This document shows, one piece after another, positions 1-26,378 of a stretch of DNA of 32,000 nucleotides (positions are counted from its first letter, which is position 1; each line of letters begins with the position of its first letter). Origin of the DNA: Candidatus Saccharimonadota bacterium (GTDB taxonomy: Bacteria; Patescibacteriota; Gracilibacteria; UBA1369; 2-02-FULL-48-14); NCBI GenBank assembly GCA_016699145.1, contig CP064962.1:1306974-1338973 (forward strand). The letters are read 5' to 3'. The notes below the pieces were generated by a model, which was given only the letters and a program-made list of their open reading frames with translations, had not been told where the DNA came from and ran no database searches. A program made the position numbers and the translations under genes.

Positions 1-588
1 ATGATGATCAGCATTGCCGGGCCCATCGCAGAGGTTTTTGACTACCGACAGGGCAATTTCATCAGCGATCCCTCGGACTTCACGGAGCGGGTCCGAATTT
101 TTGACAATGTCACTCAACTCATCATCACTTTCCTCAAATATCTTTTAGGAGGACTCGCCACGCTCATGGCCGTTCGGGCGGGAGCCATGCTCGTGATGTC
201 AGGGGACAATGACGACGACGTGAGTAAGGCAAAAAAACAACTCACGCTCAGTCTAGCGGGTTTGATGCTCATTTTCGTTTCCAATTTGGTGATCCGTCGT
301 ATTTTCTATGTTGCCACTTACAGCACCAATGCCGAAGCCACCATCGTGCAACTGGACCAAAACGAATTCATTCGCCAACTCGTGGCTGTCACCAATTTGA
401 TGATCAGTTTCTTAGGCCCCATCATGATGCTGGGCATTGTGATTGGAGGCTTCCTTTACGTGACTTCTCAAGGGGAAGAAGAAAAGACGGGTCTCGCCAA
501 AAAAATCATCACCAATTCCATCATTGGAATCGTCATTATTTATGGAGCTTTTGCCCTTGTTTCAACTCTTATTGCAGGTCAATTCTAA
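1..588 (+). CDS. T4SS-pilin-like (TrbC/VirB2-type; resembles Pfam T4SS_pilin PF18895) membrane protein with two helical-hairpin modules. The 5' end may be cut by the window edge.
   Basis: Two copies of the pattern TM helix, short acidic/basic loop, TM helix: ...AGAMLVMSGDNDDDVSKAKKQLTLSLAGLMLIF... and ...GGFLYVTSQGEEEKTGLAKKIITNSIIGIVIIYGAFALV. The second matches my recollection of the T4SS_pilin consensus (G-x-x-Y-x-T-S-x-G-x-x-E-x-x-x-x-AKK-x-I-x-x-x-x-I-G). The ORF begins at base 1, so the true start is unknown. The next gene begins 3 nt downstream. Confidence 0.7.
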   Translation: MMISIAGPIAEVFDYRQGNFISDPSDFTERVRIFDNVTQLIITFLKYLLGGLATLMAVRAGAMLVMSGDNDDDVSKAKKQLTLSLAGLMLIFVSNLVIRRIFYVATYSTNAEATIVQLDQNEFIRQLVAVTNLMISFLGPIMMLGIVIGGFLYVTSQGEEEKTGLAKKIITNSIIGIVIIYGAFALVSTLIAGQF

Positions 589-591
589 TTC

Positions 592-1533
592 ATGAAAAAA
601 ATCCTCTTCACTTTCGCCCTCGCTGTGCTCGCCTCCACCGCACCCCATGTGGCAGCCACGAGCATTCAATTCCAAGAAATTTTGGATGATTTTCAAGAAG
701 ACGTAGCCAGCGAAAGTCAAGATGTGCAAGAAGGAGCAGAAGGCATCACCTTGCCCAATTTCAGTGAAGATGCTGAGGAAGGGGCCGACATCATTGTGTT
801 GACCATCCGCCGTTTTTTGGACTTTTTTAAACTGATTGTGGCTCCTTTTGCCGTGCTGTTCGCCGTCATCATGGGGGTACGCATGGTCTCTGCAGGTCAA
901 GAAAATGAAGAAGTGGCAGGACAAGCAAAAAATTTCATCCGCTACGCCTTGGAAGGTCTCATCATTATTTTTATGTCCGATTCCATTGTGAATGTGATGT
1001 TTGGCGCCGAAGGAGAAGTCTTCAGAGAAGGACAAGCGGGAGTGCAAGAGTTTGCAACGCGCAGCAGCAATCTTTTTAAAGGGATTTATACTTTGGTTCA
1101 AACCGTCATCGCCTCCATTGCCGTCTTTGTACTGGTCATGGCCGGGATGCGTTACGTGGTGGGTTCCACCAGTGACGACCAAATCGGTAAAGCCAAAAAT
1201 CAGATCAAATGGGCCTTTGTGGGTCTTTTTGTGATTGGGATTTCTGAATTTGTGGTCAAAGATATCCTCTTTGAAAACTATGGACAAACTCTGGGAATCG
1301 AATCCGCCAAAGAACTCTTTGTGGATCTCACCAATTTTGTTTCAGGCACTTTGGGAACCTTGGCTTTCGTCATGCTCATTTACGCAGGTTTTTTATACCT
1401 CACCGCTTCTCAAAACGAGGACAATGCCGCTAAAGCCAAGAAGATCATTTTTGCCGCTTTGATTGGAATTGTGATCGCCATTTCGGCCTTTGCCATCACA
1501 AACACCTTTGTGGAGCTTGATGCTTCCCGATAA
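592..1533 (+). CDS. Secreted or membrane T4SS-pilin-like protein with three tandem pilin hairpins
   Basis: Signal peptide MKKILFTFALAVLASTAPHVAA. Three hairpin loops each lie between hydrophobic helices: VSAGQENEEVAGQAKNFIRYALEGLIIIF, VVGSTSDDQIGKAKNQIKWAFVGLFVIGI and LTASQNEDNAAKAKKIIFAALIGIVIAISAFAI. The gene is tightly packed between pilin-like neighbours. Confidence 0.7.
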   Translation: MKKILFTFALAVLASTAPHVAATSIQFQEILDDFQEDVASESQDVQEGAEGITLPNFSEDAEEGADIIVLTIRRFLDFFKLIVAPFAVLFAVIMGVRMVSAGQENEEVAGQAKNFIRYALEGLIIIFMSDSIVNVMFGAEGEVFREGQAGVQEFATRSSNLFKGIYTLVQTVIASIAVFVLVMAGMRYVVGSTSDDQIGKAKNQIKWAFVGLFVIGISEFVVKDILFENYGQTLGIESAKELFVDLTNFVSGTLGTLAFVMLIYAGFLYLTASQNEDNAAKAKKIIFAALIGIVIAISAFAITNTFVELDASR

Positions 1534-1547
1534 CTCTCTATAATACT

Positions 1548-4500
1548 ATGGAAAGAATCCTCGCCATGACTTTAAAACCTCGTACCTTTCTCGCGACCCT
1601 GCTCCTCTTGAGCGGTCTCCTAACGGCCGTTCCGGTGGCTCAAGCCATCAGCGTTCCCATTGGGGATCAAGACTTGGAACAAGGGGATTTACAACCTGAA
1701 GATTGTGCCAATTTGGATGAAAGCTTAGCGGGTGCATTTGGCTGTGACACCAGCGATACCGTCACCGATTTTGTGGACTTCACCGGGGAATTGGAAGGAC
1801 CCGATGCCGCCGGTTACGACGAAGCTCTCACCGAAAACACCAATGCGCGCGATTTCATTCAATCCGTCGTCAACTTTGCACTTTCTTTTGTGGGACTGAT
1901 TTGTGTGGTCACCGTCATTTACGGAGGTCTCTTGTATGTGACCAGCCGTGGGGACGAAGAGCAAACCTCCAAAGCCAAAAAAGCCATCACTTATTCAGTG
2001 ATTGGAATTGTGATCATCATGGGGTCCTTTGCCTTTGTGAACACCATTTTGCAGGTGGGCGGCGGGGGAAGCACAGGAGACGGCAACGGCACGGCTTTGA
2101 ATGGAGAGACCATCAATGAATCGGGCGCCGCCTTCGACGTGAAAGACGTGCTCGACGAAATCGAACAAATCACCGAAGAATATGTGGAAGCCTATCAAAC
2201 CTTGCTCGCAGTGAATAAAGAAGTGTCCTCGATGCAAGCCTTAGAAATGCCCGTAGTGGTGGAAGTGACAGAAAGGGAAAGAAGTTTAGGAGGAGTGATC
2301 GACTTCACCACCGAATATTTTACCGGTGAAGACGACGATTTCGCCGACACCTATACGGTTTTGGAAGAAGCGAGAGTGGATGCTTACACCACCAGCCTCG
2401 CTCGTGCCGCTCAAAACATCATGTCCGAAACCGATGCCCTGAGTGACACTTATGAAGACGCTTATCAATTGTATCAATATTTGCAATACGGCAGCCGAAA
2501 TTTTGTGGCAGACGGTGACCCTGAGGCAGAGGCGTGTAACACGCTGAGTTTCAACGTTCGCGATAGAGAAGTGAATGGGAATTTGGGCTGGACCCGAACC
2601 GATGCCGAGGTGCAAGTGGTGGATCCTTACATTTGCAACTACATTGCCGCCATTTTGCAAAGCGCGGAATCCGACTACTTAGAAGTGATTGGAGATTCAG
2701 GTGTGGGGCTCATCGGTCGCTTTGAAGAATTGAAAGCGCTTTTCGACGTCAGTGAAAATGCAAGCGGTTCCAATCTCACCGGCATTGTGATGGCTTTGTC
2801 CAACGCACAAACCGCTTTGACCAATGCAAAAACCGTGATCAGCAACAGCACTATTCAAGAGATCCAATACGCTATGAACGAGCTTTATGAATTGGTGAAA
2901 AATGTCGAATTCGTTCAAGTGAGACTCACCGCTACGGTGGTGGAGGGCAATGCGCCTTTGTTGGTGCGTTTTGATATTTTGGGTACGGAAGATCCCAGCG
3001 GAAACACAGTGGAAGATGCTCAAATTCAATGGGATTTGGATGGAAATGGAGTTTATGACGAAGCCGCAGTGGGTGAAGATTTAGGCGCAGATTCCATCAG
3101 TTACATTTTTGATCAAGCAGGCACTTATAGAGTCAAAGTACGGGTGCTCAGTTCAGAACCCGACATTGCAGCAGGAGTTTCCACAGTGAGCATTCGAGTG
3201 CAGCCCGCAAAATCCCTCATCGTCATCAACGCCACAGTCGGTTCCAATGGCCCTCAAGCCATCGCCAACTTCATTCAGTCGCCAGCCATCAATAAGCCCA
3301 AGTTCAAAGTCACGGCCTCGGAAGCCTCCTCAGAAGCAGGGATTTTATTCGACGCCTCAGAAAGCACTGATGGAGAAGGAAACGTGTCTGGAATTCGCTA
3401 TTATGAATGGGACTTTGGGGACAATGAAACAGAAGCCGGCAATTTTGAGCAAGCGGCCACCATTCGTCATTTCTATGCTCAAGAAGGAGTCTATGACGTG
3501 TCGCTGACCGTCACCGATCAAGATGGCGTGAAAGACAGCAAATACTTTAAACTTTACGTTGCCACCCCTGCAGCTCGCATCAATGCGTCTCCGGCCCTGG
3601 GCATCGCAGGCACGACCTTCACCTTAGATGGATCTTCCTCCACCGCGGATGTCGGTTCGATTCGAAACTATCAATGGTCAGTGAGCAAGCAAGGAGGCGC
3701 CGCCATAAACCTTTCTCAAAACACCGGAAGCAGCATTCAAGTCACTTTAAACGAGCCTGGAATTTATGATGTGAACCTGAACGTATCCGACACTTCCTCT
3801 AAATCGGATGCAGCCACCGCCTTCGTGGTGGTGGAATCTCAAGCTCCTGTGGTGACTTACACCTATGAAATTGAAAATGAAAATCAGCCCTCCATTGTCA
3901 CTTTCGACGCTCGAAACAGTTACGATCCCGACCCCAACGACCGCTTGGAATTTTCTTGGGATTTCGGCGGCTTTGAAGGGGAGGATTACATCATTCTAGA
4001 AGAATCGGAAGATCAATCGGAAGTCACCGTTCAATTCTTAGACACCGGGGCTTACACCGTGCTGCTCACGGGTCACGATCAACACCCGCAGGCCATTCAA
4101 AAAAGCGACACAGCCACCGCCACCATTCAGGTGAATTCTATTTTGGATGTCGACCTCACAGTGAGCGGAGATGAAGCGCGGCATTTGAACCAAGATGGAG
4201 AAGCCGAAGTGGAATTCACTGCAGAAAGTGAATTCGGCTCCGCCTTTCAAATTGAATATGGAGACGGGGAAGTGGATTTTACCGACACACTCACCAATGG
4301 AAGAGCCATTTTCACTCATACTTACAAGCAAGCGGGGGTCTTTTATGTGAAACTCACCACCTACGATGACTCCGAACAGGAAGAAACCAACACCGACACT
4401 GTTCGTGTCTACATTGGCTCGGGCAACGCCCCCATTGCCGTGATTGGAATTGGAGCCGAAAACACCGACATCGGTACAGGGCCCAGTTTTGTGGGCAGCG

Positions 4501-6395
4501 TGAAAACAACCTTCACCTTCTCTGCAAGCAATTCTGTGAATGTGGACGGCAGCAATCAAAACCTAACTTACAGTTGGAATTTTGGAGATGGCAGCACGGC
4601 GAATCAAGCGACCGTTACCCATAAATTTACAGAAAAAGCCACCTACAACGTCACCCTCACTGTGAAAGATAAAAACGACCCCAGCATCAGTGATGAAGCC
4701 GTGGTTCCCATTCAAATTCAAGGCATTGAGCCCAAAATCCAAAGCATTTCAGTGGTTCCCGTAAGCACCACCGAACTCACCACACCCCTCAAGGTCAACG
4801 TCTCGGTTACTGCTTCTGATGACGATGGAAAAATCACTTACATAAGAGGCTGGTATTACGACTTGGACGATTCCGCCACTCCACTCGGAACCGTGATTTC
4901 AGAATCCGGAAACTTCACTCTCACGCTCAACACCAACGGAGAAGAAGGTGAAAATAAAGAATACGGTTTTGCCGTGGAAGTCACCGACAACGACAACCAA
5001 ACAGTGTCCAGTTTTGATCAACTCGATCCCGCAGACATCCCCACGCTTTCTGTCATCAACGGGCCCAACGACAGTCCCGTAGCCTCTTTTTCAGTGGATA
5101 AATCTTCTCGTTACGTGGGGGAAGAAGTCACCTTTTCAAGCCTTTCTTACGACCCCGATGGAGAAATCGTGACCTACTGGTGGGACATTGAAGGCGATGG
5201 ATTTTACAACAATGAGCCGACCCAAGTCAGCTCCTACACTTATGAATTTTCTCAAGTGCACAGTGAAGGCATCCCCGTGCGCTTAAAAGTGGAAGACAGT
5301 GCGGGCGCTACGGCTGAATCCGAACCCGTGATGATTTATGTGGACTCTTTGGCAGAAGATCCTGATGCCAAGTTTTTAACCGACATCGATGGCACTTATG
5401 TTCAGTTCCGTAACAATTCTTTTGTCGACAGTGAAAACGGCGCAGAACTCGCCGGCACGTATTGGGATTTTGACCTGCAAAACGACAGCGATGGCAATGG
5501 AGTCAAAGACGACGACTTCGATTCTTTTGAAGAAAATCCCACATACAATTACGAAGAATTCGGTGTTTATAAAGTCAAAATGACCGTGGTGGACACCGTT
5601 GGACAAAGCGACACCGTGACGCAAGACATTGAAGTCAAAGAAACCGCCGCACCCGTGGCTGCCTTCACCTTCACCGTAGATGAAAAAAACGTTACTTTTA
5701 GGAACACCAGCACCGTGGACACCGAACATGGAGTGGACGTGCGCACTTACGCCTGGGATTTCGACACCACTCTAGATTCCAATGGCGATTCAGAAACGGA
5801 CAATGACACTGATGCAGAATTGAAAAACCCAAGCCACGAATACGCGGATTACGGCACTTATGAAGTGACCCTCACCGTGGTGGATACCTATGGAAAAATC
5901 GACACGGTCACTCAAACGGTGGAAATTGAAAATCCCATTCAAGCCTTGAATGCCATCTTAAGCAGCGTGCCTCAAGCCAATTCTTTGTCTCAAATTCTAT
6001 TGAGGCAAGATGGCCAAGAAGTCAGTTTCTATTTTGGAGCCGAAGGGGGCAGTGAAGACTATCATTTCAGCTTGGATAAAAACATTTTTTACGACAGCAA
6101 CGCGGATGGAATACGCGACAACGACGAAGATTACAGCTCTTCTTCACCGGGTTCTTGGAAAACTCCTTTCTTCATTTCTTACGGACAAATCGTGACCAAA
6201 CTCACCGTAACCGACAATGAAACCGGCGACAGAGACATCAGCACCCTTCAAGTGGTCTTTGAAGGACACTTGGGAAGTGCTAATCTGTTCAATGCCACGC
6301 CCAAACAAATGGCACTGCTCATCTTGAGCGCCGCACTCACGGCTGCACTTGGAGTGAGCATGGCCTTTCGTTACAAACCTTTACCACGCCGCTAA
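1548..6395 (+). CDS. Giant (1615 aa) surface protein: signal peptide, one T4SS-pilin-like hairpin, a helical region, about 11 PKD/Ig-like domains and a C-terminal TM anchor
   Basis: Signal peptide ...LLLLSGLLTAVPVAQA. Pilin hairpin GGLLYVTSRGDEEQTSKAKKAITYSVIGIVIIMGSFAFV. Gly-rich linker GGGGSTGDGNG. PKD-type motifs recur about every 90-100 aa (IQWDLDGNG, YEWDFGDNE, YQWSVSKQ, FSWDFGG, IEYGDGE, YSWNFGDGS, YWWDIEGDG, TYWDFDLQNDSDGNG, YAWDFDTTLDSNGD). C-terminal tail MALLILSAALTAALGVSMAFRYKPLPRR. An alternative start at M7 (1566) gives a more canonical signal peptide. Confidence 0.8.
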   Translation: MERILAMTLKPRTFLATLLLLSGLLTAVPVAQAISVPIGDQDLEQGDLQPEDCANLDESLAGAFGCDTSDTVTDFVDFTGELEGPDAAGYDEALTENTNARDFIQSVVNFALSFVGLICVVTVIYGGLLYVTSRGDEEQTSKAKKAITYSVIGIVIIMGSFAFVNTILQVGGGGSTGDGNGTALNGETINESGAAFDVKDVLDEIEQITEEYVEAYQTLLAVNKEVSSMQALEMPVVVEVTERERSLGGVIDFTTEYFTGEDDDFADTYTVLEEARVDAYTTSLARAAQNIMSETDALSDTYEDAYQLYQYLQYGSRNFVADGDPEAEACNTLSFNVRDREVNGNLGWTRTDAEVQVVDPYICNYIAAILQSAESDYLEVIGDSGVGLIGRFEELKALFDVSENASGSNLTGIVMALSNAQTALTNAKTVISNSTIQEIQYAMNELYELVKNVEFVQVRLTATVVEGNAPLLVRFDILGTEDPSGNTVEDAQIQWDLDGNGVYDEAAVGEDLGADSISYIFDQAGTYRVKVRVLSSEPDIAAGVSTVSIRVQPAKSLIVINATVGSNGPQAIANFIQSPAINKPKFKVTASEASSEAGILFDASESTDGEGNVSGIRYYEWDFGDNETEAGNFEQAATIRHFYAQEGVYDVSLTVTDQDGVKDSKYFKLYVATPAARINASPALGIAGTTFTLDGSSSTADVGSIRNYQWSVSKQGGAAINLSQNTGSSIQVTLNEPGIYDVNLNVSDTSSKSDAATAFVVVESQAPVVTYTYEIENENQPSIVTFDARNSYDPDPNDRLEFSWDFGGFEGEDYIILEESEDQSEVTVQFLDTGAYTVLLTGHDQHPQAIQKSDTATATIQVNSILDVDLTVSGDEARHLNQDGEAEVEFTAESEFGSAFQIEYGDGEVDFTDTLTNGRAIFTHTYKQAGVFYVKLTTYDDSEQEETNTDTVRVYIGSGNAPIAVIGIGAENTDIGTGPSFVGSVKTTFTFSASNSVNVDGSNQNLTYSWNFGDGSTANQATVTHKFTEKATYNVTLTVKDKNDPSISDEAVVPIQIQGIEPKIQSISVVPVSTTELTTPLKVNVSVTASDDDGKITYIRGWYYDLDDSATPLGTVISESGNFTLTLNTNGEEGENKEYGFAVEVTDNDNQTVSSFDQLDPADIPTLSVINGPNDSPVASFSVDKSSRYVGEEVTFSSLSYDPDGEIVTYWWDIEGDGFYNNEPTQVSSYTYEFSQVHSEGIPVRLKVEDSAGATAESEPVMIYVDSLAEDPDAKFLTDIDGTYVQFRNNSFVDSENGAELAGTYWDFDLQNDSDGNGVKDDDFDSFEENPTYNYEEFGVYKVKMTVVDTVGQSDTVTQDIEVKETAAPVAAFTFTVDEKNVTFRNTSTVDTEHGVDVRTYAWDFDTTLDSNGDSETDNDTDAELKNPSHEYADYGTYEVTLTVVDTYGKIDTVTQTVEIENPIQALNAILSSVPQANSLSQILLRQDGQEVSFYFGAEGGSEDYHFSLDKNIFYDSNADGIRDNDEDYSSSSPGSWKTPFFISYGQIVTKLTVTDNETGDRDISTLQVVFEGHLGSANLFNATPKQMALLILSAALTAALGVSMAFRYKPLPRR

Positions 6396-6397
6396 TT

Positions 6398-8593
6398 ATG
6401 GATGTCACGCCCAATCCAATTCCAGAAAACAATCCAAATTTGGAAATGAAACCGAGTCCTGAGCCTGTGCCAAATGCTCCGTCACCTTTGCAAAATCCAG
6501 CGCCTCTGCAAAATTCCGCCTCTTTGCCCAATCCTGCTCCCAAAAAAACTCTGACTCCCGAAGAAAAAAAAGTCCAGCGCCAGGCCACGTTAAAACGCTT
6601 GGCCACGGTTTCAGTCGCCCTTTATGTCTTTCTTTTGTTGTTGATTTTTGCCTGGGGCACCTTCACCGCAGGGGTAGAACTCACGGTTTTTGATTACCTG
6701 CCGCTCAGCCAGAACACCTTCAGTGGAGCCTTGATGACTTTGTTTCATATTCTCTTAGGAGCCAGCGTTTTTATTTTGTTCTTCTACAGTTTAGTGGCTC
6801 TCCTTAAGTCCATGTTCACCAAAAAAGAAGAGGTGGAAAAAAAGAAAAAAGCGTCTCGAAAAGCATTGCTCGGAGGCTTGACCTTTCTCCTGTTTGCAGC
6901 CGCTTGGTTGGCGGGCATTTGGTATTTGGGGCCTCGTTTGGTGCTTACCGATCTTTACGAGTCTCCCATCAAAACCATTCCCACTCAAACGCTGGGTTTG
7001 ACTTCTCCCGTTGAAATTCGTTTCGATGCCAGTGGAATTCCGGTGGACACCAAGCTTTATAGAATTCTTTCTTACACCTGGGATTTTGGAGATGGAGCCA
7101 CGGCCAATGGAGTCAGCACTGCACACACTTACACGCAAAAAGCCACTGGAAACGGAATTTACACCGTGCTTCTTTCCGTGCGTTATGCCGATCTGAGCAC
7201 GGGTGAACAATTTGAAGACACTTTCAAAACCACCGTGGCCATTGCCAATGAAAAGACAGCCGCCTATTTCACGGCCAATCCTGAAGCAGGGGAATTGCCC
7301 TTGAAAGTGCATTTCGACGCCACCAGTTCTTATGATCCCGACGGGGAAATTGTGGCCTACGAATGGGATTTCGACAACGACGGAAGTTTTGATGATGGAG
7401 AAGGAGAAGAAATCGATCACACCTTCACTCAAGAAGGGGACTACCTCGTGTCTTTGCGCGTCACCGACAACAGTGGTGAATACAACACGGCCAGTCTCAC
7501 CATTGAAGCGGGAAGCATTGGAGGCTTGCGTGCCGTCATCACCACCAACGTCGCAGAAGGGGAAGCCTACTACTTGGACGAAGAATATAAATTCGATGGC
7601 TCTCTTTCACAAATTGGAGAAGGGAAAATCACTCAATACAGCTGGGATTTTGGAGATGGCAGTGTTGCCGTAAAGACGCGTTCCGTCAATCACCGTTTTG
7701 AAGCAGTGGGAGTTTATACGGTGGTGCTCACCGTGACCGATCCCGAAGGCAACAGCGATGAAAGCACGCTCGAAGTTCGGGTGGTGGAAGAAGGCTCCGC
7801 TCCCGAGGCAAAAATTTCTACGCTTCCAGCTTTAGAAAATAGAGCCGTTACGGGTCCGGTTCCTTTAGAAGTTCGTTTTGATGCCACTGCTTCTTTCGAT
7901 GAAGAAAACGACATCGTGGACTATGAATGGGATTTCGACAACGATGGAACGGTAGATGACACTGGGGACACCGCTACCCACACGTATCAAGTAGAAGGCT
8001 CTTTTGAAGCCCGCCTCATCACCACCGACTCGGTTGGGAATGTGGACGAAGCCCTCGTGCCCATTGAAGTGACAGCTCAAGGACTCATCGCTCGTCTCGA
8101 AATCGATCAAAGCAATGGAGAAGTGCCGCTCACCGTTGAATTCGACGCCAGCGCATCGACCTACAAAGAAGGCAACATTGTCTCTTATGAATACGATTTT
8201 GGGGATGGAAGTGACAGCTACATTGGAGGCTCCAGCGTCACATATCGTTACAATGCCGTGGGTACTTTCACCGCCAGCGTCACCGTGATCGCGAGCGACG
8301 GAAAAAGAGGCAGCACCAGCGTTCAAATTGTCGTTCGTCCTGTGGCTTTGACGGCTTGTTTCACCGTGAACACCGATTCCGGACAAGCACCCCTCTTCGT
8401 TTCTGTGGATCCTTCCTGTTCGGAGGGCACCGTGGATTCCTATCATTGGGATTTTGGCGACGGGGAAATCAGTTTTGACCGCAAACCCGAAACCCACACC
8501 TATTCCACTCCCGGCACCTACACCATCACTTTAGAAGTGACCAGTGCAGAAGGAATCGTCAGCGTCTTTGAAAATGAAATCACCGTGCGCTAA
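6398..8593 (+). CDS. Membrane-anchored PKD-domain protein (731 aa) with a Pro-rich N-terminus, three TM helices and six PKD domains
   Basis: N-terminus is rich in P/N/L (PSPLQNPAPLQNSASLPNPAP). Three hydrophobic helices; TM2, a charged loop and TM3 (LVALLKSMFTKKEEVEKKKKASRKALLGGLTFLL) loosely resemble the pilin hairpin. Six PKD motifs: YTWDFGDGA, YEWDFDNDG, YSWDFGDGS, YEWDFDNDG, YEYDFGDGS, YHWDFGDGE. The start lies 2 nt after the upstream stop. Confidence 0.8.
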   Translation: MDVTPNPIPENNPNLEMKPSPEPVPNAPSPLQNPAPLQNSASLPNPAPKKTLTPEEKKVQRQATLKRLATVSVALYVFLLLLIFAWGTFTAGVELTVFDYLPLSQNTFSGALMTLFHILLGASVFILFFYSLVALLKSMFTKKEEVEKKKKASRKALLGGLTFLLFAAAWLAGIWYLGPRLVLTDLYESPIKTIPTQTLGLTSPVEIRFDASGIPVDTKLYRILSYTWDFGDGATANGVSTAHTYTQKATGNGIYTVLLSVRYADLSTGEQFEDTFKTTVAIANEKTAAYFTANPEAGELPLKVHFDATSSYDPDGEIVAYEWDFDNDGSFDDGEGEEIDHTFTQEGDYLVSLRVTDNSGEYNTASLTIEAGSIGGLRAVITTNVAEGEAYYLDEEYKFDGSLSQIGEGKITQYSWDFGDGSVAVKTRSVNHRFEAVGVYTVVLTVTDPEGNSDESTLEVRVVEEGSAPEAKISTLPALENRAVTGPVPLEVRFDATASFDEENDIVDYEWDFDNDGTVDDTGDTATHTYQVEGSFEARLITTDSVGNVDEALVPIEVTAQGLIARLEIDQSNGEVPLTVEFDASASTYKEGNIVSYEYDFGDGSDSYIGGSSVTYRYNAVGTFTASVTVIASDGKRGSTSVQIVVRPVALTACFTVNTDSGQAPLFVSVDPSCSEGTVDSYHWDFGDGEISFDRKPETHTYSTPGTYTITLEVTSAEGIVSVFENEITVR

Positions 8594-10603: not shown

Positions 10604-11320
10604 TTATAAAGGTTTAGCACTGGGAACCCCCACTCGTCGAGGGTAGGATGCAGACAAGGATTTCACTTTTTCAAAGCGTAAAATCACGCGCTCTTCAGAA
10701 CCCGCAAGGGAATAGATAAAAGAATCGCGATACAGCAGCCCCAATTCCGCTTGAGCTCTTTGAGAAGTTGTCAATTCTTCCAGGTATTCAGGTCCCTTCC
10801 AAGCGTAAAGATGCCCACCAACTTTTAAAAAACTTGAGGAGTATTCCAAAAGCACCGGCAAAGCCGCTAAAGCGCGTGCCGTCACAAAATCAAAACGCTC
10901 CCGATATTTTTTTTCATGACCCAATTCTTCCAAACGTCCCACAAGCGTGCTGGCATTTTTAAGTTTCAAAGCCTCAATCATCTGCTGCACGGCTTTCATT
11001 TTTTTTTCACGAGCATCCACCAAAGTGAACTTCACCTCCGGGCAACTCACTGCCAAAGCCAACCCTGGCAATCCGCCCCCGGTGCCCACATCCATACCCT
11101 GGGCCCCTTTTTTCACCATCCAAAATTCAAGCACCGCCAGACTGTCGGGCAAATGCTTCTCCCCAATCTTCAATCGATCTCCCGCTGAAAACAGATTAAG
11201 CTCCTGGCTCTTCTGTTCCAATAGGCTCTGGAGTAGGGGAAGGTTCATGGGGTTCAGAAACGGGTTCAAGGGGCTCTTCATTTTCAATGCCTTCAGGATT
11301 CTCAAGGGGTTCTTCCGCAA
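10604..11320 (-). CDS. rsmG: 16S rRNA (guanine527-N7)-methyltransferase RsmG/GidB
   Basis: HLPDSL...DVGTGGGLPGLALAV..PEVKFTLVDAREKKMKAVQ...DFVTARALA is typical GidB. The start is uncertain. Internal ATGs at 11281 and 11248 would shorten the overlap with the upstream lipoprotein gene. Confidence 0.85.
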   Translation of the reverse strand: MRKNPLRILKALKMKSPLNPFLNPMNLPLLQSLLEQKSQELNLFSAGDRLKIGEKHLPDSLAVLEFWMVKKGAQGMDVGTGGGLPGLALAVSCPEVKFTLVDAREKKMKAVQQMIEALKLKNASTLVGRLEELGHEKKYRERFDFVTARALAALPVLLEYSSSFLKVGGHLYAWKGPEYLEELTTSQRAQAELGLLYRDSFIYSLAGSEERVILRFEKVKSLSASYPRRVGVPSAKPL

Positions 11321-11705
11321 GGGGTTCTTCCACCGCAGGCTCGCCCTGCAAAGTCAGCTCAATGGAAGCCGAAGCCGTCTCGGTGGTCGTAGGGTCAAAA
11401 ACAGTAGCGGTCACTTCACAAGCCGCCCCTGTAGGTAAATCTTTCATCAGAGTCAAAGGAAGTTTGTGCACGGTAGAAACAGGACTATCCTCGTCCACAA
11501 TCGGCAAAAGTTCCAAGGGTTCAGCCCCGTCACAGCTCACTTTGGAGATGTAAGCCAAGGTGGGCTGACTCACCACAAAGTCCAAGGTGCTGACTGCAGG
11601 ATCCACCACCGAGCCTGGGGCATTGGTGAAGGTGAGGGTATAAGGTGCAACTAAAGAACAGCCGGCGCTGAGCAGCAAAGCGGCAAAGGAAAGAGTCTTT
11701 TTCAT
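11196..11705 (-). CDS. Putative lipoprotein with an E/P-rich C-terminal tail, function unknown
   Basis: Lipobox signal peptide MKKTLSFAALLLSAGC. The acidic Pro-rich tail EEPLAEEPLENPEGIENEEPLEPVSEPHEPSPTPEP overlaps the annotated 5' end of rsmG. Confidence 0.6.
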   Translation of the reverse strand: MKKTLSFAALLLSAGCSLVAPYTLTFTNAPGSVVDPAVSTLDFVVSQPTLAYISKVSCDGAEPLELLPIVDEDSPVSTVHKLPLTLMKDLPTGAACEVTATVFDPTTTETASASIELTLQGEPAVEEPLAEEPLENPEGIENEEPLEPVSEPHEPSPTPEPIGTEEPGA

Positions 11706-13489: not shown

Positions 13490-14724
13490 ATGGACATTCT
13501 TGTGATTGGAGGAGGGGCAGCCGGCATGATGGCCGCAGTGGAGGCTGTGCAAAATCCTCAGGCCAAAGTGATGCTCATCGAAAAAAATCCAGGCCTCGGA
13601 CACAAAGTGCTCATTTCGGGTGGAGGTCGCTGCAACGTGACCACCGGTTTTCACGATCTTCGAGCTCTTGTTCAACGCTATCCACGTGGAGGAAAATTCT
13701 TGCAATCGGCTTTTTATCGTTTTTCACCTCAGGCTGTGATGGATTGGTTTGAGACCCACGACGTGCCCTTAAAAGTGGAGGCAGACGGACGCGTTTTTCC
13801 TCAATCCGACAATGGCAAGGATGTGCTGGGCGCTCTCGAAAAATCCCTTCAAGCAAAGGGAGCAAAAATTCTGCTGCGAAAAGAAGTCGCCTCCATTCAA
13901 AAAGAGAGGCGTTTTCTCGTAACTCTCAAGTCCGGCGAAAGCTTCGAAGTGGACAAAGTCATTCTCACAACCGGTGGACAGGCCTATCGACACACGGGTT
14001 CCACAGGGGACGGCTATAGCTTTGCCGAAAGCTTGGGACATCACATCACACCGCTCGCTCCCAGCCTCAACTCTTTCATTGTGAAAGAAAATGGCCTCGT
14101 GAATTGGCGGGAGTTTCCCTCAAAAAAGTTCAGCTCAAAATCAAAACGAAGCAAAAATATGAATGGACGGGACCCATCCTCTTCACTCATAGAGGCATCA
14201 CGGGGCCAGCTGTTTTTGCGCTTTCTTCCATGATCGCTTTTGAAAATTACAGTGAAAAAGAACCGCTACTCCTACTCTTAGATTTTTGCCCGGACACCAA
14301 GGCCAATGTGCTGGAAGAAGAGCTAACGAAAGAACTCAAAGAAAACCCAAAAAAACAATTCAACAATCTGCTCGCTCGCTTCGTTCCTCGCTCGCTCGCC
14401 TTAAAACTCTGCGAAGCTCTGGCCCTCCCCGAAGAAAAAATCAGTGCCGAACTCAGCAAAAAAGATTTTCACCGAACACTTGAACTGCTTAAAAATTGCC
14501 CCATACAACTCATCGGGCGTGCCGCCGGGGAAGAATTCGTCACTGCCGGGGGAGTGGACACCGATGAAGTCGATCCTCGCAGCATGGAATCCAAAATCTG
14601 TCCCGACCTTTATTTTGCCGGAGAAATTTTAAACGTGGATGGCTTCACGGGCGGTTTCAATTTACAAGCCGCTTGGGCCACCGGACATCTGGCAGGGGTC
14701 AGCGCCGCAGAACTCAAGGCTTGA
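13490..14724 (+). pseudogene. HI0933/YhiN-family NAD(P)/FAD-dependent oxidoreductase, split by a 1-nt frameshift in an A-run near 14084-14092
   Basis: The N-terminal ORF (13490-14233) has MDILVIGGGAAGMMAA and ISGGGRCNVT. The C-terminal ORF (14104-14724) has FTHRGITGPAVF and GEILNVDGFTGGFNLQAAWATG. Homology-like continuity switches frame at gtgaaagaaaatgg. Adding one A would give ...PSLNSFIVKEKWPRELAGVSLKKV... Confidence 0.8.
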
Positions 14725-21053: not shown

Positions 21054-22415
21054 ATGTCCAATTTGATGGAAGACGTCATGTCCCTCTGCAAACGCCGTGC
21101 TTTTGTCTACCCCGGCAGCGAAATCTATGGAGGACTGGCCAACACGTGGGATTACGGACCTTACGGCTCTCAACTCAAAAAGAATATCCTCGACTTTTGG
21201 TGGAAGACTTTTGTGGAAAGCCGCGACGACATGATGGGCCTGGACAGTGCCATTTTGATGAACCCTCGCGTTTGGGAAGCGTCTGGACACGTGTCCAACT
21301 TTTCAGATCCACTGATGGATTGTAAGAGCTGCCAAGAGCGCGTGCGTGGAGATAAAATTTTGGAAGAACACCTCAAAACAACCATCGCCGGGCTCTCCAA
21401 CGATGAAATCTTTAATAAGATGATGGAAGAAAAAATCCCATGTCCCAAGTGCAAGAAAATAAACTGGACCGAACCCCGCGCTTTCAACCTGATGTTCAAA
21501 ACCTACCAGGGAGTGATCGAAGACACTGCAGCCCAGGTTTACCTTCGCCCCGAAACCGCTCAGGGCATCTTTGTGAATTTTAAAAACATCCTCGACTCCA
21601 CTCGCAGCCGCCTCCCGTTTGGAGTGGGGCAGTACGGAAAATCTTTCCGCAATGAAATCACACCCGGAAACTTCATTTTCCGCACCCGTGAATTCGAACA
21701 AATGGAAATCGAGTACTTCGTGCGCCCTGAAGACGCCGAAAAAGTCTTCGATCAATGGGTGGAAGACTATAAAGCCTTTTTCAAAGCCCTTCGAATTCCC
21801 GAAGATAAACTGCGCCTACGTTACCATGAAAAAGACGAACTTTCTCATTACTCTTCTAAAACCGTCGACTTTGAATACGAATTCCCCTTCGGTTGGGGAG
21901 AACTGATGGGAATCGCGCACCGTGGCTCTTTTGACCTCGATCAACATATGAAGTTTTCTGGTGAAAAGCTGCAATACCGCGATCCTCAAAGCAACGAGCT
22001 GCTCACTCCTCACGTGGTGGAACCCGCGCTCGGTCTCACTCGCGCCTTTCTCATTGTGTTGCTCAGCGCCTACGAAGAGCAAGCCCTCGAAAACCGCGAA
22101 ACCCGCACCGTGCTGCACTTTGCGCCTCAAATCGCTCCTGTTCAGGTGGCCGTATTTCCTCTTCAAAAGCAACAATCCGAAAAGGCGACTGAACTTTACC
22201 GCAGCCTCAAAAAGCAATTCCGCGCGGAATACGACGAAAGCGGAGCCATCGGGAAGCGCTACCGCCGCCAAGATGAAATCGGGACGCCTTTTTGCATCAC
22301 CTACGATTTCGATTCCGATACAGACGGCTGCGTGACGGTGCGTGAACGCGACTCCATGACTCAAGAGCGGGTGAAGGTGGAGGAGCTTGAAACTTATTTG
22401 AAAGAAAAACTCTAG
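21054..22415 (+). CDS. glyQS: Glycine--tRNA ligase (homodimeric class II type)
   Basis: LCKRRAFVYPGSEIYGGLANTWDYGPYG..LKKNI...WW, FRNEITPGNFIFRTREFEQMEIEYF and a C-terminal anticodon-binding region (GKRYRRQDEIGTPFCITYD). Confidence 0.95.
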   Translation: MSNLMEDVMSLCKRRAFVYPGSEIYGGLANTWDYGPYGSQLKKNILDFWWKTFVESRDDMMGLDSAILMNPRVWEASGHVSNFSDPLMDCKSCQERVRGDKILEEHLKTTIAGLSNDEIFNKMMEEKIPCPKCKKINWTEPRAFNLMFKTYQGVIEDTAAQVYLRPETAQGIFVNFKNILDSTRSRLPFGVGQYGKSFRNEITPGNFIFRTREFEQMEIEYFVRPEDAEKVFDQWVEDYKAFFKALRIPEDKLRLRYHEKDELSHYSSKTVDFEYEFPFGWGELMGIAHRGSFDLDQHMKFSGEKLQYRDPQSNELLTPHVVEPALGLTRAFLIVLLSAYEEQALENRETRTVLHFAPQIAPVQVAVFPLQKQQSEKATELYRSLKKQFRAEYDESGAIGKRYRRQDEIGTPFCITYDFDSDTDGCVTVRERDSMTQERVKVEELETYLKEKL

Positions 22416-22486: not shown

Positions 22487-25207
22487 ATGGCACAGCTCAG
22501 CAAAATCTGGGAATTCATCCTCGGAATGTGGGATAAAGTGAAGGGCCTATGGACCGCTCTGCAAAGCCATTTTCCATGGATTCAAGAAAATTATATTGAC
22601 TTGATCCTCGGCCTACTGGGCCTGTGGGTCATGATTCGCGTGGGGCCTTGGTTTGTGCGCCAAGCCTACGACTTTTATGAATCTCATAAACGAGTGGTCA
22701 TTCAAATCACCATGCCTCGCGAGGAGTCTCAAAAAGACAAAGAAAACGCAACCGAAAAGGACTTTCGCGAAAAAATGGGCGTCATGGAACAACTCTATCG
22801 TGCTATTCATGAAATCCATGAATTGAATCTATGGAATCAAATCATGGTCAAATGCTTTGCGCGCGACAGCATCACTTTTGAAATTTTTGCCAAGCACAAA
22901 GACATCACTTTTTTCTGCACCATTCATCCCTATTACAAAGACGTTTTAGAAAAACAGATCACTTCATTTTACCCCACGGCGGAAATCGCTTACATTGCAT
23001 CGTCCACGCTCAAAGCCGAAGAAGGAAAAAAACATCTGACCAAAAAAGGCTATTACCTTTACACCAAAAACACCAACTGGCTGCCGCTCAAAACCTATAA
23101 AACCATTGAAAACGATCCACTGAACGATTTGACCAATGTTTTGTCGCAACTCAAAGAAAATGAAAAAGCCATGCTTCAAATGATGATCCGTCCGCGAGAT
23201 GAAAAATGGCAAAAAGAGGCCAATGCCTATGCCACTGCAAAATTCAAAAATGAGGAACCTCAAAAACGAGGAATTTTACGCACCCTCGTAAGACCCTTGA
23301 GTTGGCTCTTCACAGCCATGATTTTTGGCTACGACCAAGCCGAAAAAAACAGCCCTCCACCCGGAGCAAAAAGTGGAGACTCTTACGTGCGTATGCTGCA
23401 AACCGAAGAAGAAATTGCCAAACGCATCGGTGAAAAATCCAACCAAGTCGGTTTCGACACTGTGATTCGCATCATGGCCGCCTCCGATGAAGGAGAATCC
23501 CGTTGCGACTCCATTTTGGACGGACTTTTTGTGGCCTTCAACACCACCAAAGATGCCGCTTCAAACTGGTTCCAAGCGAGGCGCCTCATCCCCATCGACT
23601 TCATCAACAGTCCCATTCTTTACATGAGTCTCATCGATCGCAATTTTCAGTTCGGAGAAAAATCATCCATTTTAACTCCCGAAGAGCTCGCCACTATTTT
23701 TCATTTTCCAAACAGCCGTTACAACTACACACCGCTCATCAAATGGATGTCTTATAAAGTGCTTCCTGCTCCCACCGAAATGGGTACAGATGGAATTTTC
23801 TTGGGTTACAATGTGTTCCGTGGAGTCAAAAAACCCGTGCATTTCCGCAAAAAAGATCGCGCTCGCCACCACTACATCATCGGGCAAACCGGTACAGGTA
23901 AATCATCCTACATCAGTCAAATGGCTCGCCAAGACATTGCCAATGGCGATGGAGTGTGTGTGATAGACCCGCACGGGGACCTCATTGAAGACATTTTGCA
24001 ATACATTCCTAAAGAAAGGGCCAAGGATGTGATCGTCTTCGATCCAGCCGATTCTGAGCGCCCCATGGGACTCAACATGCTCGAAGCCAAAACTCCCGAG
24101 CAGCAAGACATGGCCTCCAGTCAAGCGACTGAAATTTTTATCAAAATCTTCGGAGATGAAATTTTTGGACCTCGCATTCAGCATTATTTCAGAAACGCCT
24201 GTCTCACTCTTATGGAAGACCCCGACGAAGGCGCCACACTCATCGATGTGCCTCGTATTTTCGTGGATGAGCAATTCATGCGTTACAAGGTTTCTAAGGT
24301 GAAAAATCCTGTCGTCAAATCTTTCTGGGATCATGAATACGCCAACACCGGTGACCGCGAACGCCAAGAAATGATTCCTTATTTCTCCGCGAAATTCGGC
24401 CCGTTCATCACGAACTCCATCATGCGCAACACCATCGGTCAGGCCAAGTCGGCCTTCAACATTCGCGAGTGCATGGATCAGCAAAAAATCCTTCTTGTGA
24501 ATCTTTCAAAAGGGAAGCTTGGAACACTCAATACGCAGCTGCTTGGACTTGTGCTCGTGGCTCAAATCCAAATGGCCGCAATGAGCCGTGTGGATACGCC
24601 CGAAGAACAGCGCAAAGATTTTTATCTTTACGTGGATGAATTCCAAAACTTCGCCACCGACACATTCTGTTCTATTCTCTCGGAAGCTCGTAAATACAAA
24701 CTCGTGCTCATCATGGCTCACCAATACATCGGTCAGCTCACGGTGACAAAAGGGGGCAGCACCAGCACTCAAATTCGCGACGCTGTGTTCGGTAACGTGG
24801 GAACCATGCAATCCTTCAAAGTGGGTGCCGATGATGCGGAATATTTATCTAAAGAATACGCGCCAGTGCTCACGGAGCAAGATGTGATTGGAATCGCCAA
24901 TTACAAGGCTTATATGAAGATGAATTTGAACAACACCGCATCTCGTCCTTTTTCACTGGAAACCGTATTCGACGAAAGTCAAAAAAATGAGAAAGTACGT
25001 CAGGTGATCAAAGAATATTCCCGCATGAAATATGGAAGAAAACGCAGCTTTGTGGAGCAAGAAATTGCAGCCCGCATCGGGGTGAATGTAGAAGAGCTTG
25101 GAAAGGACGTAAAAGCCGATTACACTGCAACTGCGCCTCAAGCGGCAGCCGCTGAAGAACCGCTACATCAGCCCATCACTTCGCCGACACAAAATGCAGG
25201 TTCCTGA
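22487..25207 (+). CDS. VirD4/TraD/TraG-like type IV coupling-protein-family P-loop ATPase (FtsK/HerA superfamily) with an N-terminal TM segment
   Basis: N-terminal hydrophobic helix (LILGLLGLWVMI). Walker A HHYIIGQTGTGKSS, Walker B FYLYVDEFQNFAT. Downstream LIMAHQYIGQL...FGNVGTMQSFKVG..DAEYLSKEY resembles the T4CP C-terminal motifs. The assignment within the superfamily comes from motif recollection, not a search. Confidence 0.6.
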   Translation: MAQLSKIWEFILGMWDKVKGLWTALQSHFPWIQENYIDLILGLLGLWVMIRVGPWFVRQAYDFYESHKRVVIQITMPREESQKDKENATEKDFREKMGVMEQLYRAIHEIHELNLWNQIMVKCFARDSITFEIFAKHKDITFFCTIHPYYKDVLEKQITSFYPTAEIAYIASSTLKAEEGKKHLTKKGYYLYTKNTNWLPLKTYKTIENDPLNDLTNVLSQLKENEKAMLQMMIRPRDEKWQKEANAYATAKFKNEEPQKRGILRTLVRPLSWLFTAMIFGYDQAEKNSPPPGAKSGDSYVRMLQTEEEIAKRIGEKSNQVGFDTVIRIMAASDEGESRCDSILDGLFVAFNTTKDAASNWFQARRLIPIDFINSPILYMSLIDRNFQFGEKSSILTPEELATIFHFPNSRYNYTPLIKWMSYKVLPAPTEMGTDGIFLGYNVFRGVKKPVHFRKKDRARHHYIIGQTGTGKSSYISQMARQDIANGDGVCVIDPHGDLIEDILQYIPKERAKDVIVFDPADSERPMGLNMLEAKTPEQQDMASSQATEIFIKIFGDEIFGPRIQHYFRNACLTLMEDPDEGATLIDVPRIFVDEQFMRYKVSKVKNPVVKSFWDHEYANTGDRERQEMIPYFSAKFGPFITNSIMRNTIGQAKSAFNIRECMDQQKILLVNLSKGKLGTLNTQLLGLVLVAQIQMAAMSRVDTPEEQRKDFYLYVDEFQNFATDTFCSILSEARKYKLVLIMAHQYIGQLTVTKGGSTSTQIRDAVFGNVGTMQSFKVGADDAEYLSKEYAPVLTEQDVIGIANYKAYMKMNLNNTASRPFSLETVFDESQKNEKVRQVIKEYSRMKYGRKRSFVEQEIAARIGVNVEELGKDVKADYTATAPQAAAAEEPLHQPITSPTQNAGS

Positions 25208-26378
25208 AGAATACAATGTGCTCCACATTGGGCCAGAAACAAGCTCTGCCGCCCAAGACAAAAAAATTCTGACCGTTCTCAAAAAATTGCAGTTTTCCAA
25301 AGTGGGAACTCGGGTCTTAATTGGACTGGCTTTGGTGACAGTTTTTGGATTGGGAACTTCACTGTATGGCACCGTGCAAAGCACCGAAAATCGAGTGGAT
25401 GCGCTGATCGACGAATTGGGTAAACTCAGTGCATCCAATTTTGAATTGAGCGAACAAGTCACTTCTCAAGACGCCGTTCTTCGTTCCATTGAGGAAGATT
25501 TTTCAAACTTGGGAAGCGCCTTAGAAAAAGGAGATAAAGACGAAATTGGAGCCTTATTCACCAGCATTTTAGAAAAGTTTGAAGACACGCCCAATGCCTT
25601 GGACTTGAGCCAAGACGTCCAACTTTCTGAAATCGAAGACGAAACGTTCGACATCCTTTTGTTGGGCACCAATGGAGCTCACACCGACACCATCATGGTG
25701 GCCAGCGTGAACAAAGAAAAAGAAAAAATCAGCCTTTTTTCCGTGCCTCGCGACCTCTATGTGAATGGCCGAAAAATAAATGAATATTACACCTATTATG
25801 GAGTGGAAACTTTGAAGCGCATGCTTGAAACCGTCACCGGCCTTCAAATCGATCAATACGCCCAGGTGGACCTAAAAGGTTTCGTTGAAATTGTGGCTGC
25901 ATTAGGGGGGGTGGACGTCTACGTGACCGAGTCTATTTACGATGGACTTTATCCGAATTCAAAAGGAGGTTACTCGCCCTATTCCATTGAGAAAGGAAAA
26001 CATCATTTAGACGGGAATGAAGCCTTGAAATACGCTCGCAGTCGAGAATCCACCTCGGATTTTGATCGTGCCGAACGGCAACAAGTGATTTTAGCGGCAG
26101 TGCGTGAAAAAATCACTCAACTGGACAGTGTGATGGAACTCAAAGAGCTCACAGAAGTGCTGCAAACTGCCCTCAGTCACAGCACCACCGACCTCGATGT
26201 GCTCGACCTTGTCTCTTATTATTTCGATTACAAAGACTACGATTTGAACACGGGCTTTGTGCTGAACAGCGGGAATTATCTTTATTCCCTGATCAACGAA
26301 GGGGGAGCCTACATTTTGCTGCCTCGCACGGGCAATTATGAAGAAATCCACGGCGTGATTTCTGACCTCGTGAACTAG
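25194..26378 (+). CDS. LytR-CpsA-Psr (LCP) family cell-envelope phosphotransferase
   Basis: N-terminal TM (VLIGLALVTVFGLG) and LCP core FDILLLGTNG..HTDTIMVASVNKEKEKISLFSVPRDLYV...IDQYAQVDLKGFVEIVAALGGVDV...LDGNEALKYARSR. The start overlaps the ATPase 3' end by 14 nt. Confidence 0.85.
   Translation: MQVPEEYNVLHIGPETSSAAQDKKILTVLKKLQFSKVGTRVLIGLALVTVFGLGTSLYGTVQSTENRVDALIDELGKLSASNFELSEQVTSQDAVLRSIEEDFSNLGSALEKGDKDEIGALFTSILEKFEDTPNALDLSQDVQLSEIEDETFDILLLGTNGAHTDTIMVASVNKEKEKISLFSVPRDLYVNGRKINEYYTYYGVETLKRMLETVTGLQIDQYAQVDLKGFVEIVAALGGVDVYVTESIYDGLYPNSKGGYSPYSIEKGKHHLDGNEALKYARSRESTSDFDRAERQQVILAAVREKITQLDSVMELKELTEVLQTALSHSTTDLDVLDLVSYYFDYKDYDLNTGFVLNSGNYLYSLINEGGAYILLPRTGNYEEIHGVISDLVN

Follow-up and report, generated by a model that had tools for sequence, protein, structure and literature searches.

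Why would a single protein carry the hairpin of a conjugative pilin near one end and a long array of PKD domains over most of its length? The question is raised by a gene that we call C, an intact open reading frame (ORF) at 1548..6395 on the plus strand of the window, the 32,000-nucleotide (nt) stretch of contig CP064962.1 analysed here. Its product of 1615 amino acids (aa) has the same sequence as NCBI QQR54922.1 from a 1.34 Mb contig of this uncultivated organism, 'PKD domain-containing protein [Candidatus Peregrinibacteria bacterium]', and so is already deposited, with generic annotation only. C is the third gene of a four-gene cassette, A-B-C-D, in which A and B encode further pilin-like hairpins and D a second PKD array. 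The reading we favour, with a probability of roughly 55%, is that C is the ectodomain-bearing subunit of a lineage-specific, chromosomally fixed envelope assembly built from VirB2-like hairpins.

The hairpin of C (aa 101–172; 1848..2063, plus strand) consists of two transmembrane (TM) helices, TM1 and TM2, joined by a short KAKK loop. Hydropathy places the hydrophobic helices at aa ~102–133 and 145–172 and the KAKK sequence at aa 142–145; an AlphaFold2 (AF2) model has helices at 100–132 and 137–170 (predicted local distance difference test score, pLDDT, ~78), with KAKK just past the turn. The Pfam family PF18895 (T4SS_pilin) matches whole C with 42.6 bits and the isolated 86-aa hairpin segment with 49.1 bits, both above its gathering score of 26.6. 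The isolated hairpin scores 27.3 bits against PF04956 (TrbC), just below the cut-off of 27.9, and the hairpin scores 39.2 bits against NCBIfam NF045849, a pilin-like family of Mycoplasma integrative and conjugative elements (ICEs), just under the cut-off of 40. Among orthologous C hairpins, 35 of 35 match PF18895 and 33 of 35 match PF04956 (E<=0.01). Judged by its profiles, the hydrophobic pair near the N terminus does belong to the VirB2/TrbC superfamily, and the pilin likeness claimed for it in the original prediction stands. C shares with the T4SS_pilin superfamily a profile match above threshold and a leader followed by two long helices with a short basic loop. It is not a small, single-hairpin mature subunit, since ~1440 of its 1615 residues lie past the hairpin. 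Sequence searches of the PDB, with an N-terminal profile and with a hairpin-only profile, found no conjugative pilin, and a fold search of the PDB with the AF2 model of C aa 1–482 gave only generic helical-bundle, G-protein-coupled receptor (GPCR) and 14-3-3 matches at E>0.01; whole-chain fold search (Foldseek) is, however, unsuited to a 70-residue hairpin. With no solved pilin detectable by either route, the pilin assignment rests on profile homology, not on structure.

The remainder of C is strongly acidic and, by prediction, exported. A Kyte–Doolittle scan finds exactly four hydrophobic segments: a signal peptide, the two hairpin helices and a last helix. The Sec-type signal peptide (aa 1–33; 1548..1646; hydrophobic at aa 12–33) ends in AQA, after which cleavage before IS is predicted from hydropathy and sequence. 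It leads into an acidic pre-hairpin region (aa 34–100; 1647..1847) with a Cys53/Cys66 pair that no fewer than 90% of orthologues conserve; FxxFxGxLxxPxxxGYDxxLT is a conserved motif of the same region. On the far side of the hairpin, a Gly-rich linker, GGGGSTGDGNG (aa 171–181; 2058..2090; low pLDDT at aa 169–195), connects to an acidic helical-bundle module (aa ~183–455; 2094..2912) with a small Cys330/Cys363 beta insert. AF2 predicts helices at 198–231, 274–315 and 361–451 in this module; the model of aa 1–482, made from a 15-sequence alignment, is only moderate (mean pLDDT 60), and PDB searches by fold and by sequence gave the module no significant match and no recognisable relative. Then comes a colinear array of 10 PKD domains (aa ~456–1450; 2913..5897), whose starts fall at aa 470, 598, 688, 781, 886, 987, 1080, 1191, 1282 and 1380 in a self-iterated hidden Markov model (HMM), with matches to PF18911 (PKD_4; 229.5 bits, 8 stretches) and PF00801 (169.7 bits). 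Tandem PKD profile matches in an exported protein place C among the PKD-domain surface proteins. The array is closed by a C-terminal beta domain (aa ~1455–1565; 5910..6242; conservation 0.41–0.42 in the family alignment), which carries an Asp-rich motif, DKNIFYDSNADGIRDNDEDY, that may bind Ca2+. This domain is the eleventh immunoglobulin (Ig)-like unit of C, so that the earlier count of about 11 PKD-like repeats is fair for Ig-like units but one too many for PKD domains. At the very end stands an anchor module (6273..6392) composed of GSANLF (aa 1576–1581), a 6-aa spacer, a TM helix (aa 1588–1607) and the tail RYKPLPRR.

Net charge along the chain is −18 over aa 36–100, −38 over aa 173–470 and −130 over aa 471–1560, and turns to +3 over aa 1561–1615, which hold the C-terminal helix and basic tail. 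This pattern is consistent with the positive-inside rule, with loop and tail predicted inside and the array outside, the topology first proposed for C. Hydropathy, Pfam and the HMMs likewise bear out the proposed combination of pilin hairpin, PKD domains and C-terminal anchor, and the signal peptide, linker, acidic helical segment and basic tail are all seen, with no LPXTG. As to the start of the protein, a second in-frame ATG at 1566 is as plausible as the annotated one. A sigma-70-like site at 1517–1544 (plus strand; TTGATG, 16-nt spacer, TATAAT; 10/12 matches) ends 4 nt before the annotated ATG and, were it in use, translation of C would need the ATG at 1566; such sites are not above chance, with 6 in the region against 8.6 expected.

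The genes on either side of C show that its hairpin does not stand alone. A, B, C and D are co-directional, with gaps in the window of 3, 14 and 2 nt, and a convergent gene follows D; on this layout the four abutting genes form one operon. Gene A is cut by the window start, and its remaining 3′ part (1..588, plus strand; 195 of ~310 aa) shows hairpins A2 and A3 (PF18895, 57.9 bits, 2 stretches), placed by a family hairpin HMM at aa 25–103 and 116–192. Gene B (592..1533, plus strand; 313 aa) encodes a signal peptide, then an acidic stretch and, in tandem, the three T4SS_pilin hairpins B1–B3, found by PF18895 (97.9 bits, 3 stretches) and by the hairpin HMM; it also exceeds the NF045849 cut-off of 40, with 57.3 bits. 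The AF2 model of B comprises three helix–loop–helix hairpins (61–100/106–137, 148–190/195–231 and 236–274/276–312) with helices of 32–43 residues. Its pLDDT is 72 overall and mostly 72–90 in the helices, and its predicted template modelling score is 0.44; the hairpins are thus modelled with confidence and their mutual arrangement is not, which is consistent with hairpins that need partners. A Foldseek search of the PDB with this model returned only generic helical-bundle, GPCR and 14-3-3 matches (E>0.01). The upstream genes are therefore pilin-like, as had been supposed, but each is a tandem array of three hairpins, with six TM helices, and not a single pilin.

Gene D (6398..8593, plus strand; 731 aa), the last of the operon, has a Pro-rich N terminus, three hydrophobic helices and 6 PKD domains (PF18911, 287 bits, 6 stretches). 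Its N-terminal part (aa ~60–175) holds a first TM helix and then a unit of two TM helices around a KKEEVEKKKK loop. Aligned to the hairpin profiles with hhalign, this unit reaches 40–60% probability (E about 1e-4) at the B1, B3 and C1 positions and 6–15% at the other four, with reversed controls below 3%. The HMMER match of the hairpin HMM to D is not significant, and D scores only 16–17 bits against the Mycoplasma ICE families NF045848 and NF045849, the 17 bits for NF045848 being insignificant beside a cut-off of 90. The N terminus of D is possibly a divergent eighth hairpin.

Is this arrangement peculiar to one genome? An exhaustive phmmer search with C aa 1–470 returned 23,127 proteins at E<=0.001, and we examined the best 150 cluster representatives. 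Of these, 88 have lengths of 1300–2666 aa and align over the pre-hairpin motif and the hairpin. The 22 representatives that were read whole share one plan: a leader, a Cys-bracketed acidic stretch, the hairpin, a Gly-rich linker, a helical module, a junction motif ending 'EGNAPLxVxFD', a PKD array and a C-terminal beta domain. At the level of loci, a metagenome scan contributed 80. We predicted the genes of all 83 loci fetched and searched them with hairpin and PKD HMMs built from the family; a Candidatus Peribacteria metagenome-assembled genome is the source of one related locus. The prediction that orthologues keep the hairpin together with the PKD array agrees with all 48 loci with a full-length C and all 88 long representatives, a set retrieved via the N-terminal region. 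The global search also brought up Candidate Phyla Radiation (CPR) proteins with 4–8 hairpin stretches per chain, for example P0059, with 8 stretches in 820 aa.

Across the fetched loci the cassette runs A, B, C, D on the plus strand. A (~300–390 aa) and B (~310–380 aa) have three hairpins each, C (~1500–1800 aa in nearly all) has one hairpin plus PKD domains, and D (~710–840 aa) has no hairpin match and always 6 PKD domains. Both A and B precede C in all 40 loci with enough upstream sequence, among the 48 with a full-length C, and D follows C in all 41 with enough downstream sequence, every exception being a contig end. The cassette adjoins, on the minus strand, a conserved gene of ~181 aa that we read as nusG; the neighbours match secE-nusG-rplK-rplA in size and order, with Pfam annotation in two loci (L001 and L002). 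These NusG-type proteins are 68–100% identical (median 81%) where C proteins are ~33% identical, a difference that indicates one lineage with a fast-evolving C, which on its sequences nonetheless keeps hairpin, length and domain count. Two loci carry C in split form. In L002 (2428–7439), hairpin and PKD domains lie in separate overlapping ORFs (262 and 1460 aa), and in L015 the N-terminal part is disrupted; L013 and L014, with gene maps otherwise like that of L015, carry an intact C gene of 1595 aa. The split genes look like frameshifts or assembly errors and not natural split forms.

The seven hairpins are not copies of one another. In complete cassettes, with matches limited to <=60% identity, the best match of a hairpin in another locus occupies the corresponding position in 268 of 271 cases. 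The hairpins are hence non-equivalent parts: by their sequences A1–3, B1–3 and C1 are positional orthologues in a fixed 3+3+1 set, not interchangeable variants, and each of the seven positions has its own signature residues. The hairpin of C is the most conserved of all, with a mean pairwise identity of 0.55 (A3, 0.50; the others, 0.35–0.42). Along an alignment of 38 orthologues, column identity in C is 0.54–0.55 in the hairpin and 0.26–0.49 in the PKD array, which is colinear with few gaps, as against 0.13–0.20 in the adjacent helical module, the most variable part of the family.

This conservation bears on a rival account of the fusion, in which domain shuffling recruited the hairpin as a plain membrane anchor. 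C would then act independently, as an adhesin or S-layer-like protein, and shared regulation, not physical assembly, would explain why its gene is linked to A and B. PKD arrays are indeed common in surface adhesins, the cassette's neighbours in distant loci are further Ig-like, RTX or SLH surface proteins, D is held by TM helices that are not clearly hairpins, and NCBI labels C just as a PKD domain-containing protein. Generic anchors are, however, usually the least constrained part of a protein, whereas the hairpin and pre-hairpin motif are the best conserved parts of C, the hairpin has signature residues specific to it, and the invariable presence of A and B comes with orthology at each hairpin position. 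Constraint on the C hairpin goes far beyond what a generic anchor needs and supports a specific role in assembly with A and B. We consider a plain anchor decidedly improbable.

What, then, is the last hydrophobic helix for, at the far end of C? A hydrophobic helix with a basic tail ends ~57–60 of 89 long family members (about two thirds). In the TM-bearing orthologues of one C-terminal alignment, the helix is preceded by the motif G-x-x-[NSD]-[LIVM]-[FLI], at a spacing of 6 residues in the window's C and roughly 6–12 elsewhere; the helix itself varies. The remaining ~29–32 of the 89 form a coherent clade that stops right past the beta domain ('...QEIKFK'). The layout of motif, TM helix and basic tail, in which the motif is kept while the helix varies, would fit a tail that is cut by its own processing enzyme, a protease or transpeptidase akin to sortase, exosortase or rhombosortase, and the cut would free the far end or attach it to the wall. 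Peribacter genomes reportedly encode a sortase A (PMC4736985). The suggestion that the C terminus is a cleaved sorting signal nevertheless fares poorly. There is no LPXTG, PEP, GG or PGF signature in the tail, none of the NCBIfam sorting-signal (CTERM) models matches C even at E<=10, and a spacer parts the motif from the helix in place of direct abutment. Nor does a C-type tail recur on any of 530 neighbouring proteins in the fetched loci (~20 kb sampled per genome), and the predicted sorting enzyme has no counterpart in the window, which holds no sortase-like gene. A whole clade, moreover, does without the module. We take the tail to be a genuine second membrane anchor, though a dispensable one; cleavage as a family-specific signal is a minor possibility, and very unlikely. 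The anchor-less clade is seen in loci L025, L031, L035, L042, L043, L049, L051, L057, L058, L062, L063, L066, L067, L072 and L078. Several of these encode additional large Ig-like proteins after D, in the same orientation (600–1100 aa; PKD, FlgD_ig, fn3, CARDB and RTX domains), which suggests an extended operon in the clade.

How might these parts work together? After Sec export and cleavage of the leader, the single hairpin of C would be embedded in the cytoplasmic membrane, the basic loop facing the cytoplasm and the two ends the exterior. In the membrane it would pack with the three hairpins of A and the three of B into a defined hetero-oligomeric scaffold; since gene C is always accompanied by both upstream pilin-like genes, co-assembly with their products is the most economical reading. 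The acidic ectodomain of C, ~1400 residues of helical module, 10 PKD domains and C-terminal beta domain, would project outward, with the 6-PKD ectodomain of D beside it. These Ig-like stalks or arms, for which about 11 Ig-like domains suggest a length of roughly 40 nm, could reach through the wall and S-layer to another cell or a surface. In the lineage of the window, the C-terminal TM helix and basic tail would return the distal end of C to the membrane. The PKD arrays, the variable helical module and the lifestyle attributed to CPR bacteria suggest that the function could be attachment to a host, prey or surface, or else an envelope-structural role; adhesion to a host or prey is plausible.

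A classical pilus would use the same parts differently: A and B would be pilins, perhaps processed to single hairpins, extracted by a type IV secretion system (T4SS) and polymerised into a VirB2-type pilin–lipid filament, and C a minor pilin that joins the polymer by way of its hairpin and displays its PKD array on the outside as an adhesin. Membership of the C hairpin in the VirB2/TrbC superfamily fits such a filament. Both ends of the C hairpin are predicted to be extracytoplasmic, so that, with the geometry of the solved F-pilus, a C-terminal fusion would face outward. Essential pilin arrays are moreover known in cultivated CPR bacteria (PMC10633639; PMC12102498). Several findings that favour a filament weigh directly against the membrane scaffold. 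AF2 gives the hairpin helices of B and C a length greater than a bilayer needs, as in true pilins. The anchor module is missing in roughly one third of family members, a clade that would suit filament display. An ATPase of the VirB4/VirD4 superfamily is encoded in the same genome 16 kb downstream of the cassette (22487–25207, plus strand; 906 aa; TrwB_AAD_bind 47 bits, DUF87 and TraG-D_C; Walker A at ~aa 460, with a match of the Walker-A region to TrwB structures), and T4SS-dependent extraction of the hairpins into a filament may be possible with it. To these must be added that relatives of C were all retrieved via the N-terminal region, so that hairpin-less members would escape, and that a homologue search with a C-terminal profile yielded only fragments.

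The genomic context nevertheless speaks for the scaffold. Up to 10 kb from the cassette, the flanks checked in related loci hold no gene for VirB4, VirD4, VirB3 (PrgI) or VirB6 (PrgH), so that the linkage to T4SS machinery that marks a conjugative pilus system is absent over this distance. The window ATPase stands alone between a class II aminoacyl-tRNA synthetase gene (21054–22415) and a LytR_cpsA_psr gene (25194–26378), with no homologue in the 83 fetched loci and no other recognisable T4SS gene nearby. A fixed set of position-specific hairpins is also unlike either a homopolymer-forming major pilin or the variable pilin arrays of CPR bacteria; the far end of C, in two thirds of the family including the window's C, has a second membrane anchor; and D is equally conserved though it has no clear hairpin. 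A membrane scaffold bearing Ig-like stalks therefore fits better than a homopolymeric pilus with an occasional adhesin subunit, given the non-equivalent 3+3+1 hairpins, the covalent tandems of A and B, the lack of linked T4SS genes and the second anchor in most members. We hold the classical pilus to be unlikely. The idea that C co-assembles with its upstream pilins thus gains from the invariant linkage, whereas its display on a polymerised conjugative pilus finds no support in the context. More tentatively, the cassette could be an unrecognised Peregrinibacteria surface organelle, in which seven VirB2-derived hairpins, or eight with that of D, form a fixed, hetero-oligomeric ring or short stalk in the membrane, independent of a T4SS and bearing two PKD arms of defined length; we put this forward as a possibility that falls short of even odds.

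Close relatives flank the cassette with housekeeping genes (a fumarase-type lyase, RlmE, RsmG and RsmE). In the window, a small exported Pro/Glu-rich protein with a lipoprotein-like N terminus (LLSAGC) is encoded at 11196–11705 on the minus strand between rsmG and rsmE, overlapping the 5′ end of the listed rsmG ORF; the ten closest related loci conserve it. The sequence of an HI0933-like flavoprotein is divided between two overlapping plus-strand ORFs in different frames (13490–14233 and 14104–14724), the first with the Rossmann part and the second with the barrel and the C-terminal Rossmann part; a frameshift might account for the split, as might a pseudogene or an error in sequencing. Two plus-strand ORFs with IS3-type integrase cores (rve, rve_3) lie at 28694–29578, which also has helix-turn-helix domains, and at 30417–31172; they are probably two copies, or a complete and a truncated copy, of an insertion sequence.

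Literature searches on pilin–PKD fusions, PF18895 and Peregrinibacteria surface proteins found no description of the fusion, of tandem-hairpin proteins or of the cassette. What is new, and apparently undescribed, is the setting of the VirB2-like pilin domain, whose architecture and genomic context are conserved: it is part of a strictly conserved four-gene cassette and not of a one-off fusion. CPR bacteria (Patescibacteria) are thought to live attached to other cells, and the molecules of contact are known for a few cultivated Saccharibacteria only. Here a VirB2-type hairpin is joined covalently to a long Ig-like array, and a whole lineage keeps the operon in single copy beside core genes. Should the hairpins assemble, C would provide the first case of the conjugative-pilin fold serving as attachment module of a giant surface protein, whether in a filament or in a fixed scaffold, and the cassette would be a concrete, conserved target in Peregrinibacteria for cryo-electron tomography, proteomics and multimer modelling. 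Were the organelle to exist, the fold would have been repurposed as a permanent envelope scaffold for cell–cell contact. A Pfam T4SS_pilin match in a CPR genome is, on the present results, no automatic evidence of a pilus or of conjugation.

Among known systems, the VirB2/TraA/TrbC pilins (PF04956, PF18895) resemble C in their Sec leader, two long helices, short basic loop, ends outside the cytoplasm and profile homology. They are, however, small and single-hairpin, whereas the C hairpin carries ~1400 extra residues and a second anchor, has tandem three-hairpin proteins as partners and is not linked to T4SS genes. In a classical VirB2 pilus, which is a fivefold pilin–lipid homopolymer, pilin recruitment depends on VirB3 and VirB6 and pilin extraction on VirB4 (PMC12624023). 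Closer in host are the pilin arrays of Patescibacteria, such as the essential T4SS pilins of Southlakia epibionticum ML1 and the 'Sec secreted array' of TM7x, which likewise belong to this Pfam family, occur in CPR hosts and have several pilin-like genes side by side (PMC12102498; PMC10633639). VirB2-like pilins proved widespread in a survey of 3,035 Patescibacteria genomes, which detected no T4SS adhesin; the arrays it describes, most abundant in Microgenomatia and Saccharimonadia, have 2–11 separate, highly variable pilin genes, often near virB4, and it mentions neither tandem-hairpin proteins nor PKD fusions (PMC12102498). The cassette, by contrast, is fixed at 3+3+1 hairpins in three genes, is PKD-fused and PKD-linked, and lies beside nusG, not near virB4.

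Ig-like folds are shared with the Pam pilus (PamA/PamB), a CPR-specific surface filament, which assembles by donor-strand exchange and has no VirB2 hairpin (bioRxiv 10.64898/2026.03.03.709456). C itself was rejected as a PamR protein (NF058578), its 44.5 bits (cut-off 300) falling within the PKD domain at aa 621–661 as generic Ig-like similarity. The ICE proteins of the Mycoplasma NF045849 family (Mbov_0395/MMCAP2_0565) are, like C, monoderm VirB2-like hairpins; they are short, ICE-borne and conjugative, whereas C is chromosomal and core-linked, with a giant ectodomain. Adhesin modules are also known from modular type IV pilins, as in PilB and PilC of Streptococcus sanguinis, and T4SSs have adhesins of their own in the VirB5 tip protein and the Gram-positive PrgB. 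Type IV pilins have one N-terminal helix and a class III leader, and their assembly module is unrelated to the C hairpin. PrgB is LPXTG-anchored, unlike C. In Patescibacteria it was undetected (PMC12102498). What C has in common with these proteins is a concept, that of an assembly module fused to or paired with a binding module so that a pilus or secretion apparatus presents an adhesin; the likeness is one of analogy only.

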